Assembly: GCA_045113315.1 (NCBI GenBank)
Contig: JBGUIX010000010.1
Location: forward strand, 3,248-67,247
Length of the DNA: 64,000 nt
Source of the DNA: Bacilli bacterium
Lineage (GTDB): Bacteria > Bacillota_I > Bacilli_A > RFN20 > CAG-826
Direction: 5' to 3'
Shown here: positions 3,309-35,346 of the stretch, one piece after another
How positions within the stretch are numbered: position 1 is the stretch's first letter
Layout: every line of letters starts with the position of its first letter
The notes under the pieces: model-generated
The model's database searches: none
Seen by the model: the letters and a program-made list of their open reading frames with translations, nothing else
Told to the model about the DNA's origin: nothing
Translations under genes and position numbers: made by a program

Positions 3309-4028
3309 TTAATATTTTTCTCTTATCTGCGACATTAATATGCCTGCAGCAACAGATGCATTTAATGAATTAACATGCCCATATTGAGGGATTTTTACTA
3401 TGTAATCAGAATTAGACAAAACTAATTTAGAAACACCTTGTCCTTCACTACCAATAATAAGAACAGTTTTAAAATCATAATCTAAGTCTTGATAATTAAT
3501 TGTTCCAGAACCATCGGTAGAAACAATCCAAAATCCTTCTTCTTTTAGTTTAGAGATGGTCTGATTCAAATTGCCAATAAGCGCAACAGGCACATAATTA
3601 ATCGCCCCTGCTGAAGTTTTGGCCACAGTAGCATTTAACGGAACTTGGTTATGTTTAGGAATTAATAAGCCAGTTGCTTTAAATACATCACAGCTTCTTA
3701 ATATAGCTCCTAAGTTATGTGGATCGTTAATTCCATCTAAAATAACGATAAGTGGTTTAGTTTCACTTTTTGCCAATTTTAAAATATGCTCCAAAGAAAC
3801 ATATTCGTATTCTTTAATAAATGCAATAATACCCTGATGAACTCCATCGCATAAAGAATCAAGCTCGTCATTGCTTTTAAAAGTAGTTTTCACGTTCTTT
3901 TCCTTAATGAGATCGAGTATTTCTTTATGTGAGAATTTAGGTGTTAAAAAGATTGACTTTACGCGGTTAGCATGTAAAGCTTCTTTAACTGAATTCCTCC
4001 CATAAATGACATTATTTTTCGTTTCCAT
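3309..4028 (-). CDS. rlmB: 23S rRNA 2'-O-methyltransferase, SpoU/TrmH family (RlmB-like)
   Basis: Motifs LDGINDPHNLGAILRS, LIIGSEGQGVS and IPQYGHVNSLNASVAAGI. The ATG at 4028 (METKNNVIYGRNSV) is preferred over the GTG at 4058. Confidence 0.8.
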   Translation of the reverse strand: METKNNVIYGRNSVKEALHANRVKSIFLTPKFSHKEILDLIKEKNVKTTFKSNDELDSLCDGVHQGIIAFIKEYEYVSLEHILKLAKSETKPLIVILDGINDPHNLGAILRSCDVFKATGLLIPKHNQVPLNATVAKTSAGAINYVPVALIGNLNQTISKLKEEGFWIVSTDGSGTINYQDLDYDFKTVLIIGSEGQGVSKLVLSNSDYIVKIPQYGHVNSLNASVAAGILMSQIREKY

Positions 4029-31885: not shown

Positions 31886-33157
31886 TTAGAGTTTTTCAAC
31901 GGTTTCTTGCAAAACCATTTTCTTTAAATTCTTTTCTTTTCTTCCTGGTTTTAAAACTCTTTCACCAGGTTTAATCGCTCCAACTGGGCACACAAGTCCA
32001 CATAATAAACAACCAACACATTTATCATGGTTACAATTTGGACGACGTGTTTCTTTATTCCATTCCATAGCTTGGTGAGCGCCGTCATAACAGGAGATAA
32101 CGCATCTTCCACAGCCAACACATTTATCGGAATTAATTTCTGGATAGACGATATAATCTCTATCAAGTTCTTCCGCTGGAATGATATTTTTATTAGCTAA
32201 TCCGACTAAGTCTTCTAAATGATCGACGCCTTGTTCTTCCATATAGTGCTCTAAGCCGTTTTTCATATCTTCAACGATACGATAGCCATATTGCATAATA
32301 CCTGTGGTAACTTGTAAGTTTTTACAACCTAATAAGATAAATTCTGCAGCATCTTCCCAAGTTTCGATACCACCGATACCGGAGATATCTACATCCTTAA
32401 GTTTTGGATTAGTTTTCATCTGTTGAATAAATCTTAAGGCCACTGGTTTAACAGCTTTACCAGAATAACCAGAAATAGAGGATTTACCATTAATAATTGG
32501 TAAACCAACTTTCTTATCTAAATCAACATTGATAATAGATTTAATGGTGTTAATAGCCGCGATACCATCCGCTCCACCTTCGATAGAAGCGATGGCAGGA
32601 TCACACATATCAGTGATATTTGGTGTCATCTTGGCCATGAATGGTAATTTGGTACTTCTTCTAACAGCCGCGCAGTATTTACGGCAAAGTTCAGGATTAC
32701 TACCAACATCGCTACCCATCGCATGAGAAGTCATCTGTGGACAGGAGAAATTTAATTCAATCATATCCGCACCGGCTTCGGTGACAAGTCTAGCTAATTC
32801 TTCCCAGTCTTTTTCATTACTACCCATAATTGAGGCGATAAGAACGTTATTTGGGAATTCTTTTTTAAGTCTTCTTAAGTCCGCTAAATTTTCTTCTAAA
32901 GAGTGTTCAGCGATCTGTTCCATGTTTTTAAAACCAACAAATGGTTCCGCTTCTTTTGTTAAAGCGTCAAAACGAGGAGAAACTTCATCGATTAAATAAT
33001 GTTTTGGACCAATTGTCTTAAAGACAACTCCACCCCAACCACTACGATAGGCTTTCGCACACATGTCATAGCAGTTACCAACTGGGGAAGATGATAAACA
33101 GAATGGGTTTGGGAATTTAACACCCATGAAGGTAATGGATAAATCTTTTCTAACCAT
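31886..33157 (-). CDS. preA: NAD-dependent dihydropyrimidine dehydrogenase subunit PreA (DHODH-like plus 2x[4Fe-4S])
   Basis: FMN barrel (NFSCPQ, GIAAINT, GIGGI) and a C-terminal ferredoxin domain ([23 protein letters not shown]). Confidence 0.85.
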
Positions 33158-34389
33158 TATTTTTTACCTCCTAAAAATCTTTTGACTTCAAAAGCGACTT
33201 CTTTACCGCTTCTGACACCATAAACAACTGTCTTTTCACCATGACCAATGTCACCAGCAAAGAAGACGTTAGTGCCTTCCACACGGCAACCTTTTTGGTT
33301 AACTTCGCCTTTTTCTAAAGTAACACCTAATCCGTTCACATTAGAAACTTGGCCAACCGCTAAGATGATAAGATCAGCTTTAATCTTTAATTCAGCAGGA
33401 ATAACTCTATGTTTAAATTTAACAATTCCGCCTCTAGCCACAGCGGTAGGAACATAACCATCAATGATAGTAACTCCTTCGGCTTGTGCTCCTGTTAATT
33501 CCTTCTTGGAAGCACGGAATTCAGAGAATTGTTCATAAACAACATCGGTAACATGTGGGCATCCTAATAATTTTAAGGATGTGACGACATCCATCGCGAC
33601 GTCACCACCACCGATTACTAAAACATTTTCAGGAACTTTGACATTGCCTTTTCTAGCTTTAGTTTTCTTTAACCAATCAACAGCCTTAATGACTTTACGG
33701 TTATTTTCAAACATTGGTAACATCTTACCTTCGCTAGCACCAACCGCCAAGACAACAGCGTCATTTTCTTTTCTTAATTCTTCAATCTTAACGTCTTCAC
33801 CGACTTTAGTGTTTAAAACAATATCAACACCTAATTCGACAATTCTTTTAATTTCTTTATCAACGATTTCATTTGGTAAACGATATTCAGGAATACCATA
33901 TCTTAAATAGCCACCGGCTTTTGCTTCTTTTTCATAAATTGTCACTTTAAAGCCTTCTTTAGCGAGTTCTGCAGCGACTGTTAAGCCACTAGGACCACTA
34001 CCAATAACGGCGACTTTCTTACCATTAGGTTCTTTAACTTCTAAGATTTCCATTTTGGTGGCATCTTCAAAGTCTGTGATGTAACGTTGAATTCTACCGA
34101 TATCGATTGGTTTATCAATACCGCTTCTGCTACAACCTTCTTGGCAATATCTTTCTGTTGGACATACTCTTGCGCATATCGCCCCTAAGACGTTATTAAT
34201 ACGCACAGTCTCCGCGGCTCCTTTGACGTTTTTGAAACGTAAGGAACGAATAAATTTAGCAGGATCTGTTCCTGCTGGACAACTAGTAGAACATGGAGCG
34301 TCTAAGCATAGTAAACACCTGCTAGCTTCTTCCATAACTAAACGAGGTGTAAAACCGACTTCATATTCTTTTTGGTACTTTTTGGACAT
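33157..34389 (-). CDS. preT: Dihydropyrimidine dehydrogenase subunit PreT (glutamate synthase small-subunit-like)
   Basis: N-terminal Fe-S Cys clusters ([14 protein letters not shown]), [11 protein letters not shown] and [12 protein letters not shown]. The start is set at ATG 34389 because GGAGG lies 8 nt upstream. Confidence 0.85.
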
Positions 34390-34564
34390 TATTAACCCCT
34401 CCATAAAAAGTATTAAGAATTATTCTTTGTCTATATTCTATCAAAGGATTTATTTTTATTAAATAAAAGAATAATAGCTAATTATTAATAATAAGATATT
34501 ATCTCATCAATAATTTTTTTTAATCTTTGATTAATAAAAAATCTGTCTCATATTTTTGAACATT

Positions 34565-34593
34565 TTGGAATTTTCACTCCCTATTTGTATAGT
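34565..34593 (+). promoter_or_regulatory. Candidate sigma-A promoter for the small-ORF transcript
   Basis: TTGGAA (34565-34570), 17-nt spacer, TATAGT (34588-34593). Predicted TSS near 34600. Confidence 0.35.
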
Positions 34594-34616
34594 AGGAGGA
34601 TATTTTATCTTCCTCG

Positions 34617-34791
34617 TAGTTACGTATAGGCGCTTTCGCCGACTGTTCGCTAGGTAGGCCGGAAAGAACAAAGGAGGAAGTGATTATGGAAATTATCATA
34701 GTTTTCATGACTTTACTACTATTGATGCTAGTAGAAGTAAATAAAACAGGAAGTAAGTAACCAACTTATAAATCCTGCCTATACGTAACTA
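34617..34791 (+). repeat. Perfect 15-bp inverted repeat TAGTTACGTATAGGC / GCCTATACGTAACTA bracketing the small ORF
   Basis: Arms at 34617-34631 and 34777-34791. Read directly from the sequence. Confidence 0.85.
34686..34760 (+). CDS. 24-aa hydrophobic peptide MEIIIVFMTLLLLMLVEVNKTGSK (type-I-toxin-like small ORF)
   Basis: Strong SD AAGGAGGAAG (34671-34680) 5 nt before the ATG (the GGAGG core ends 8 nt before it). The peptide is a hydrophobic helix plus a polar tail. A perfect anti-SD CTTCCTC at 34609-34615 lies in the predicted 5' UTR. Confidence 0.45.
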   Translation: MEIIIVFMTLLLLMLVEVNKTGSK

Positions 34792-34830
34792 TTGTTACAT
34801 CTTTATTTTATATTATTGACTTGATTAAGC

Positions 34831-34863
34831 AAGAAAAAAGTTGCCCACATAATATGGACAACT
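34831..34863 (-). terminator. Rho-independent terminator of the 153-aa lipoprotein gene
   Basis: Minus-strand AGUUGUCCA-7 nt loop-UGGGCAACU followed by UUUUUUCUU. Confidence 0.7.
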
Positions 34864-34884
34864 CTTAGATCAATAATTAATTAA

Positions 34885-35346
34885 TTATTTGGACCATTTA
34901 ACGGTGAAGTTATGTTCCACACCACTGACTTTACCTTTCATACTGGTTAATAAGCCATATTTGTTAAAGGTCGCTGTACCGTTATCTTGTTCAGCTTTCA
35001 TGGTAACTTTGAATGAACCATTACCGAAATAATAGGTGAAACTTTCATTATTACCGACAAATGCAGCATCATAAACGAAGACTTTTAAACCCGCTAAAGC
35101 GGCAACGCTATTGTCATTTGTACTTGGTTTACCATCTTTCCATTCATAAGTGGTCTTATCAAATTTGACTTCAGCACCTAAATAGGTGGATGTACCGTTT
35201 AAAACGACCTTTGTGAAAGGAACTTCTTGCTTAGCAGCGTTAACAGCTTCTTCATGGAATTTGTCATAGCTGACTTTGCTTGGGCCACAGGCTGTCAATA
35301 GGACTAGTGATGCGGCACCTAAAACTAATTTGTTTAAGATTTTCAT
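34885..35346 (-). CDS. Small lipoprotein (153 aa)
   Basis: Signal peptide plus lipobox MKILNKLVLGAASLVLLTAC. Confidence 0.7.
   Translation of the reverse strand: MKILNKLVLGAASLVLLTACGPSKVSYDKFHEEAVNAAKQEVPFTKVVLNGTSTYLGAEVKFDKTTYEWKDGKPSTNDNSVAALAGLKVFVYDAAFVGNNESFTYYFGNGSFKVTMKAEQDNGTATFNKYGLLTSMKGKVSGVEHNFTVKWSK

Follow-up and report, generated by a model that had tools for sequence, protein, structure and literature searches.

The 64,000-nucleotide stretch of DNA analysed here (the window) comes from contig JBGUIX010000010.1 of a Bacilli bacterium and holds, in the 480-bp gap between preT (33157–34404, minus strand) and a lipoprotein gene (34885–35346, minus strand), one copy of a repeat unit of ~270 bp (~34529–34799, plus strand). 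The unit encodes a hydrophobic peptide of 24 residues within a strongly folding transcript, and we consider it probable, at roughly 60%, that it is a solitary copy of the toxin gene in a type I toxin-antitoxin family that is confined to one lineage and has not been described before. An earlier sequence-only reading of this DNA had proposed a type I toxin-antitoxin-like locus at this site; comparative evidence now supports the toxin half of that proposal, but no convincing antisense gene was found here. Most known type I toxin-antitoxin systems come from cultured Proteobacteria and a few Firmicutes, and such systems are, to our knowledge, almost never annotated. If confirmed, the unit would represent a new peptide and RNA family from an uncultured lineage of rumen Bacilli.

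Ten distinct full copies of the unit were recovered: that of the window, those on three contigs of the metagenome-assembled genome (MAG) RGIG2675, and additional alleles from assemblies held by ENA and Logan. The preT protein of the window is 99% identical to that of this goat-omasum MAG, ‘Bacilli bacterium RGIG2675’, which carries the element at the matching site with 85% DNA identity to the window copy. Pattern scans of 185,579 species representatives restricted the element to one species and three contigs, and no other species among these genome representatives matched any of three different patterns; the unit was found only in one uncultured rumen Bacilli species. A look-up of the neighbouring DUF1295 protein led to the matching region, with further alleles, in more than a dozen independent ENA and Logan assemblies, and a profile search added two more diverged full copies together with two partial copies on a 5.8-kb contig. 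Among plasmids and phages, blastn gave short chance matches only; two scans of viral contigs found no match to the element; and a metagenome scan for an ordered pattern of anti-Shine–Dalgarno, Shine–Dalgarno (SD) and ATG returned 15 loci, all of them unrelated chance matches. Logan contigs that encode the exact preT and lipoprotein proteins of the window break exactly at the unit, as is expected because the unit is a repeat; those labelled L068–L073 stop at the two unit edges, which lie ~161 nt upstream from preT and, on the other side, ~115 nt downstream from the lipoprotein gene.

Reading frame and RNA fold of the unit

The open reading frame (ORF) occupies 34686–34760 on the plus strand (24 codons plus stop; peptide MEIIIVFMTLLLLMLVEVNKTGSK) and begins 8 nt past the GGAGG of the SD sequence AAGGAGGAAG (34671–34680). 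The ORF, its strong SD, the 480-bp gap and a GC-rich leader all lie where the sequence-only reading had placed them, with a GC content of 0.42 across 34600–34699 compared with 0.13–0.24 in the flanks and 0.36 in the window. An SD, an ATG and an ORF for a peptide of 21–29 residues with a hydrophobic core and a basic tail are present in all ten copies. Besides MEIIIVFMTLLLLMLVEVNKTGSK, the peptides include two ending in VEVKKNRN and IEVKKDRK, MNLVILFMTLLLLMLIEVKKR and MRLVIVFMVLLLLLIMTLKKDR, and further MEMLIIFITLLLLLVLAIKENR, MNLVLIFMTLLLLIIIEVKKLKTGINIPS and MELVIVFITLLLLIILEAKRKDR. Differences in the core, whose Kyte–Doolittle hydropathy is 3.3–3.6, are synonymous leucine codons or exchanges among I, L and V; the tail varies and stays basic, and a 1-nt indel that alters it still leaves a short, basic tail. 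When four copies were read in all six frames, the frame after the SD was the only one on either strand that was open with both a start codon and an SD. Judged by this pattern of conservation, the ORF is the conserved coding unit of a multi-copy family.

Two other ORFs were considered and set aside. The first, a minus-strand ORF (MKTMIISI...) overlapping the leader, has no SD, and neither its frame nor its C-terminus is conserved. The second, a plus-strand ORF of 33 residues starting from the TTG at 34556, likewise lacks an SD, and its frame is broken in some copies. The minus strand carries nearly all genes of the window, so the putative toxin gene runs against its neighbours. Across the whole window the minus strand has 26 instances of AGGAGG, with a start codon following in 23 cases, and the plus strand only five, two of which fall inside the unit.

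The structured transcript that the sequence-only reading had assumed is borne out by in silico folding. Over 34598–34830 the plus strand reaches −66.8 kcal/mol (z = −5.1), and none of 200 shuffled sequences folds as well; the minus strand scores z = −2.3, and the plus strands of two paralogues score −6.9 and −9.3. By these models, the plus-strand fold is more than chance. A five-helix minimum free energy (MFE) architecture is common to all ten copies, each folded alone. Its closing helix, P1, joins a 5′ arm at 34616–34631 to the complementary 3′ arm at 34777–34792 and contains a 15-nt perfect inverted repeat (34617–34631 with 34777–34791), the sole non-palindromic perfect inverted repeat of at least 14 nt within 400 nt in the whole window. 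Stacked on P1 is P2, in which the segment CGCUUUC-G-CC (34631–34640), termed anti-SD2, is the predicted MFE partner of the SD in every copy; the SD region AAGGAGGAAGUG (34671–34682) is paired in every fold. P3 (34684–34710) pairs the start codon with codons 6–8 in all ten copies, P4 (34712–34741) is a mid-ORF hairpin seen in the per-sequence folds, and P5 (34747–34777; CAGGA...UCCUG) covers the last codons, the stop codon and part of the 3′ untranslated region (UTR). Upstream of P1, a nearly invariant hairpin, H0, pairs AGGAGGAUA (34594–34602) with UAUCUUCCU (34606–34614), an SD-like box thereby facing CTTCCTC. H0 is predicted in all ten copies, with A-U/G-U variation at one pair, and would be part of the RNA only if transcription starts at or before 34594.

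Conservation and covariation among the copies likewise favour the core of the locus as first described, with the ORF, SD, arms and fold all kept in the ten copies. In a six-copy alignment 93.9% of cells are paired and 13 pairs show double changes, none of 500 shuffles reaches the observed pairing and slid controls are 41–53% paired, figures that come from a structure derived from the same sequences and from copies that are close paralogues. The perfect pairing of the 15-nt arms, noted previously in the window alone, recurs in all ten copies: P1 is invariant in nine, and in L085b an A to G change in the 5′ arm is matched by a T to C change in the 3′ arm (columns 33–197, AU in nine copies and GC in one), which is a single compensatory change. 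The SD form GGAGGAAGUG co-occurs with the anti-SD2 forms CGCUUUC, CGCUUCUUC or GCUCUCUCC, and the SD variant GGAGAUGAUG co-occurs with anti-SD2 CGUCUCCU; across the aligned copies, the two elements vary in concert. Three versions of the outer P5 helix are seen (CAGGA/UCCUG, UAGAU/AUCUA and CAGAU/AUCUG), all of them paired, and inner pairs of P3 also carry compensatory changes. Invariant G-U pairs tie the fold to the plus strand.

Sequestration of the SD had been attributed to CTTCCTC (34609–34615), the exact complement of GAGGAAG (34674–34680). Occlusion itself stands, as the SD and start codon are paired in the predicted fold of every copy, but the partner is anti-SD2 rather than CTTCCTC, which stays the same where the SD changes and finds its best partner in the upstream AGGAGG (34594–34602). 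In silico, CTTCCTC pairs the SD only in the window copy, given a start near 34600 and before the 3′ arm has been made. An alternative pairing of TAGGTAGG (34651–34658) with CCTGCCTA, comprising 8 bp with one G-U included, is possible as had been suggested, but it is not a family feature because the segment differs in most copies. It lies in the variable inner stem-loop of the 5′ UTR (34641–34670), of which only L085a keeps the window-type segment. The SD and AUG are paired in nascent, 3′-truncated and full-length forms in silico, and anti-SD2 occludes the SD in 3′-truncated transcripts too. Since the SD is paired in all truncated forms, P1 would be a lock added to local occlusion and not the occluding element.

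Alignment-based folding with RNAalifold on a ten-copy MAFFT alignment lost P2 because anti-SD2 was misaligned, whereas the per-sequence folds all give P2. RNAalifold offered an alternative helix between the 3′ half of the SD (34676–34682) and codons 12–14 (34715–34721; columns 85–91 with 123–129), with apparent double changes between the two SD classes; this may reflect either a second conformer or an artefact of the alignment. For a hairpin spanning the −10 region (34575–34600), apparent covariation between two copies was not upheld by further copies.

The unit is bounded on its 5′ side by a conserved block (34529–34593) in which paralogue homology begins at about GATTAA...TCTCAT, and on its 3′ side by the tail TATTGTTACA (34790–34799), which is identical in nine of ten copies (L085a ends in T). 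Within the 5′ block, the promoter named in the sequence-only reading, TTGGAA (34565–34570) and TATAGT (34588–34593) with a 17-nt spacer, is present and was found in a promoter scan, but it matches only 9 of 12 promoter positions, its −10 box is not conserved, and its frequency is that of chance, with five such sites in the region against 3.8 expected. The transcription start is uncertain because the −10 and −35 boxes vary among copies. Alternative toxin promoters, including an upstream −35/−10 pair, an extended −10, and sigma-54 and extracytoplasmic function (ECF)-like motifs, were considered, and none was convincing.

Candidate antitoxin RNAs and proposed mechanism

Each of the two partial copies lies reversed on the 3′ side of a toxin copy, with 29 and 33 nt between the predicted RNA ends. 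Both are convergent with the toxin, correspond to its 5′ UTR between the H0 equivalent and a point slightly beyond the start codon, and share their truncation points despite sequence divergence. On the opposite strand they carry promoter-like sites (TTGAAA-17-TAATAT and TTGAAC-17-TAAAAT), and each has a canonical terminator whose hairpin, AAGGGAGAAG-NAAT-TCTTCCTT, is the counterpart of H0 and leads into a U tract. The corresponding 650-bp regions of L085 have no other terminator-like sites. Two small RNAs (sRNAs) of ~103 and ~133 nt are predicted, each with a terminal hairpin and U tract and with predicted 3′ ends at 3620–3630 and 324–334 of L052; they are termed sRNA_d (5′ end CATAAGCACTTCCTCCTTTC) and sRNA_e. 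Because each gene is a reversed duplicate of the toxin 5′ UTR, its RNA would be complementary to the SD, start codon, anti-SD2 and H0. From these features we infer that both the toxin mRNA and the opposing RNA are transcribed, and we regard the partial copies as candidate antitoxin sRNA genes (~100–130 nt) in a par/Fst-like layout.

The convergent toxin/sRNA arrangement recurs in at least 12 independent assemblies. Judged by sequence, it is accompanied by repeat-derived complementarity at c21b/sRNA_e, c21c/sRNA_d and L085a/sRNA_d4, and is absent at the window copy. Among three sRNA_d alleles (d1, d2 and d3) the −35 box, −10 box and terminator are kept while the interior varies. In the paralogous modules the sRNA terminator occupies the position that matches the terminator of the window’s lipoprotein gene, an intrinsic terminator found by scanning at 34836–34866 on the minus strand, which ends antisense read-through 36 nt short of the toxin unit. 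A motif common to the lipoprotein and sRNA terminators, CAAGAAAAAAG, is probably just the complement of the U tract.

Predicted duplex energies distinguish cognate from non-cognate combinations. For sRNA_d they are −129 kcal/mol with toxin copy c11 and −111 with c31, and for sRNA_e −113 kcal/mol with c21b and −103 with c21c, compared with −67 to −91 kcal/mol for non-cognate toxin/sRNA duplexes. Two specificity classes appear on this evidence, in which SD GGAGGAAGUG goes with sRNA_d and SD GGAGAUGAUG with sRNA_e. The paralogue set would then show toxin leaders and sRNAs diverging together into two specificity classes.

By its sequence, the window SD belongs to the sRNA_d class. A 13-nt segment covering the SD (34670–34682) is perfectly complementary to sRNA_d alleles d1, d2 and d3, as are 12 nt of the leader (34624–34635) to sRNA_d; 21 nt within the ORF (34703–34723) are perfectly complementary to sRNA_e. 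The duplex of the window toxin with sRNA_d3 is predicted at −88 kcal/mol, against a mean of −40 for shuffled sRNA, and sRNA_d3 was found in a sample series that holds exact copies of the window’s preT and lipoprotein proteins.

In the mechanism that we propose, the plus strand would yield an mRNA of ~200 nt whose 24-residue product is one short hydrophobic helix with a basic tail. If it acts like other type I toxins, this peptide would lodge in the membrane and harm the cell that makes it. The 15-bp P1 helix would link the 5′ leader to the 3′ UTR, anti-SD2, stacked on P1, would pair the SD, and the start and stop codons would be held in hairpins P3 and P5; translation would presumably be activated by some processing step. 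In complete modules the antidote would be the convergently transcribed sRNA of ~100–130 nt with its canonical terminator. The window copy is most likely an orphan toxin gene, silenced by its own self-occluding fold and, in trans, by sRNA_d encoded elsewhere in the genome.

Competing explanations and genomic setting

A number of results weigh against reading the unit as a type I toxin gene. The peptide had been said to belong to no named family, and indeed four of the peptides gave no hit in Pfam or NCBIfam at E values up to 10; eight ORF translations were absent from the protein collection by exact look-up. Rfam 15 returned nothing at gathering score in the window, only below-threshold matches outside the element when E values up to 10 were allowed in its vicinity, and no relevant match to the sRNA candidates of L052. 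The covariation traces to about four lineages of closely related paralogues, and the SD is never free in silico, leaving no evident route to translation. The toxin promoter is weak: TATAGT is found in two of six copies, the others having TGATAT, and in the c21a allele of strain SRR33718305 (L074:1589–1688) TTCGCT replaces the −35-like TTGGAA. On the sRNA side, the promoter-like sites occur at chance frequency in AT-rich DNA, the L085 sRNA alleles score below the scan threshold, strain SRR33718305 has no sRNA_d gene at the usual site beside DUF1295, and c21c adjoins sRNA_d though its SD class fits sRNA_e. The last of these implies that the modules are mosaic or that some of the ‘sRNA genes’ are decayed remnants. 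Finally, profile searches found no sRNA gene in the 64-kb window, which is why its copy is treated as an orphan.

It is possible, though we would give it well under even odds, that the copies are not self-contained pairs and instead make up a distributed type I network of five or six dispersed toxin genes in two SD/leader classes. One sRNA per class, its gene standing beside only one toxin copy, would silence that class in trans. Orphan copies such as that of the window would then depend on a distant locus, and its loss would unleash several toxins at once. The presence of the sRNA_d locus does vary between strains.

An unlikely but still serious alternative is that the partial copies are decayed pseudogene fragments, leaving toxin-like genes that have no identified antitoxin or are served by a short cis-antisense RNA. 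The partial copies do resemble truncated units, one with ATG changed to ATA, the promoter-like matches are no commoner than chance, and one strain is without sRNA_d. Yet two diverged partial copies have identical truncation points, in both the H0 equivalent has become, on the opposite strand, a canonical terminator complete with its U tract, both lie convergent to and ~30 nt from a toxin unit, and three alleles retain the −35 and −10 hexamers despite changes in the interior. The cis-antisense variant would have an RNA starting at TGTAACAAT (34799–34791), the minus-strand reading of the unit’s tail and a possible extended −10 box, and ending at the P5 complement and U tract (~34738). This speculative RNA of ~48 nt (34738–34785, minus strand) would comprise the P5 complement followed by a U-rich tract made from Lys codons. 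In its favour, TGTAACAAT is nearly invariant at the unit edge, and the four copies folded form a minus-strand hairpin (−9.5 to −15.5 kcal/mol) with a U-rich tract after it, a feature that the c21b and c21c sequences show as well. The sequence-only reading had already marked TGtAACAAT here as a weak minus-strand site; the motif is present and nearly invariant, but no conserved −35 box lies upstream of it on the minus strand. The U tract, moreover, is explicable by the Lys codons, and the scan called no terminator at 34785–34738. For the minus strand of the window unit as a whole, scanning found no promoter/terminator pair and inspection found no adequate −35/−10 pair in the ORF. A cis-antisense promoter candidate within the ORF (TATGATAAT, minus strand) has no −35 box and is not conserved.

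Somewhat less probable again is that the family encodes a small non-toxic membrane protein, perhaps a micro-protein with a regulatory or accessory role, whose translation mRNA structure and trans-acting sRNAs would keep under tight control. Coding conservation, mRNA structure and sRNA complementarity do not bear on toxicity, and the peptides match no toxin family. However, the traits found here are jointly typical of type I toxins and not of housekeeping micro-proteins (PMC8594479). Each genome holds several dispersed, mosaic copies whose presence varies between strains and species; the unit inserts in intergenic positions, once replacing a higB gene; and dedicated, fully complementary candidate sRNAs accompany an extreme occlusion of SD and AUG.

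That the unit is a non-coding repeat, either mobile DNA like a miniature inverted-repeat transposable element (MITE) or a structured sRNA, with functional inverted repeats and an incidental ORF, is very improbable: although it is multi-copy, intergenic and variable in presence, with assemblies breaking at it and with arms and TATTGTTACA tail more conserved than the ORF, the MITE alternative that the sequence-only reading had itself raised fails because the inverted repeats are internal to the conserved unit (which reaches ~88 nt beyond the 5′ arm on the upstream side and 8 nt beyond the 3′ arm on the other) and conservation includes the ORF, no target-site duplication is definable against the empty site, the SD, ATG, frame, core and basic tail are kept in 10 of 10 copies even through a tail indel, G-U pairs make the fold plus-strand-specific, and the phage, plasmid and viral collections gave no hits.

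The sites that the unit occupies have features of their own. In a related species (L006) the intergenic site is empty and 115 bp long. Other sister species (among L003, L004, L005 and L007) carry extra lipoprotein paralogues at the site upstream of preT, and L005:2895–3809 has ~900 bp of other inserted sequence there, apparently with small genes; this intergenic site has the appearance of a hot spot for insertions. Across the element the lipoprotein is only 85.6% identical in protein between the window and RGIG2675 (34404–35346 against L001/L048), and there seems to be a recombination boundary at the element, between preT and the lipoprotein gene. Toxin copies are themselves mosaic between loci, as in L085a, which joins a window-type leader to a c21a-type N-terminus. 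If the preferred reading of a dispersed toxin family is true, it would explain both the breaks in short-read assemblies at these sites and the recombination breakpoints at the unit.

One strain (L085:3922–4541) has an intact higB-higA pair (Pfam HigB-like_toxin and HTH_3). In other strains (L052:1648–2317, L075:5031–5685) toxin copy c21a stands at the higB position beside an orphaned HigA-like gene, so that a type II toxin gene has apparently given way to the type I-like unit. On the RGIG2675 contig a flavin mononucleotide (FMN) riboswitch (Rfam RF00050, 78 bits, E = 4.5e-17; L052:695–816, plus strand) lies upstream of a gene for a 254-aa S component of an energy-coupling factor (ECF) transporter, and this gene has a toxin copy on either side. 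In the window, a 22-nt AT-rich palindrome (91% complementary) occurs at 34471–34502, in a stretch of 13–15% GC between the element and the preT start.

Comparison with known type I systems

Type I systems are defined by an mRNA of 150–400 nt, a toxic hydrophobic protein of 20–60 aa and an antisense RNA of 60–200 nt, and their mRNAs feature SD/anti-SD pairing, 5′ and 3′ stem-loops and 5′–3′ interactions (T1TAdb, PMC8594479). The window copy encodes a small hydrophobic protein of 24 aa in a structured unit of ~205 nt within the ~270-bp repeat, and an anti-SD in cis is predicted by folding in all ten copies. So far as can be read from sequence, the unit agrees with the generic type I definition, the antisense RNAs being candidates encoded in sister genomes and not in the window, and its layout, so judged, matches the Gram-positive type I systems described previously (PMC8594479, PMC7472228).

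In layout, the complete modules appear closest to par/Fst-RNA II of Enterococcus faecalis plasmid pAD1 and the Fst-like loci of Firmicutes, which likewise belong to low-GC Gram-positive hosts. The peptide has a hydrophobic helix with a charged C-terminal tail, toxin and sRNA are convergent in the complete paralogous modules, a stem hides the SD, a helix lies near the 5′ end, and the sRNA would gain its complementarity to the initiation region from a direct repeat in the DNA (Weaver 2020, PMC7472228). The Fst/Ldr signature consists of a conserved Trp and a P/D/S/T-XXX-G(C) motif (PMC7472228), whereas no peptide read here has a Trp between helix and tail or a P/D/S/T-XXX-G motif, and the four that were scanned have no Pfam hit. 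The repeat here is one stretch of ~100 nt over the whole 5′ UTR, compared with the short repeats DRa and DRb of par; a U tract follows the hairpin only in the sRNA direction, while par shares a bidirectional terminator; and the predicted sRNA of ~100–130 nt contrasts with an RNA II of ~40 nt (PMC7472228). Most toxin copies here, the window’s included, also have no adjacent sRNA gene. The family is not counted as a member of par/Fst because the signature is lacking, the repeat is single and long, and the terminator looks unidirectional.

With hok/Sok of plasmid R1 and AapA/IsoA of Helicobacter pylori the unit shares a predicted 5′–3′ closure of the full-length toxin mRNA, a sequestered SD and a primary transcript predicted to be translationally inert (PMC6733600, PMC8594479), as well as multiple chromosomal copies. 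Those families are Gram-negative, however, and their antisense RNA is encoded in cis, within the 5′ region of the toxin gene. The hok and AapA1 mRNAs carry the anti-SD at the 3′ end; that of the present unit is local, with the closing helix simply stacked on it. The peptides are not homologous, and 3′-truncated forms here keep the SD paired in silico.

The Bacillus subtilis systems TxpA/RatA, BsrG/SR4, BsrE/SR5 and YonT/SR6 resemble the complete modules in having the antitoxin gene 3′ of the toxin and convergent with it (PMC8594479). Their complementarity arises from overlap of the 3′ ends. Here a duplicated segment would supply it, directed at the 5′ UTR, with no need for the predicted RNAs to overlap, and searches found no match in sequence or family. 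Ibs/Sib is similar in its very short, almost wholly aliphatic peptides (21–29 residues here) and its multi-copy genes, but the Sib RNAs are fully overlapping cis-antisense RNAs of enterobacteria and show no homology to this family. The family described here would combine traits that usually occur in separate families, namely a 5′–3′ lock like that of hok and AapA, a local anti-SD, and a convergent, repeat-derived sRNA like that of par.

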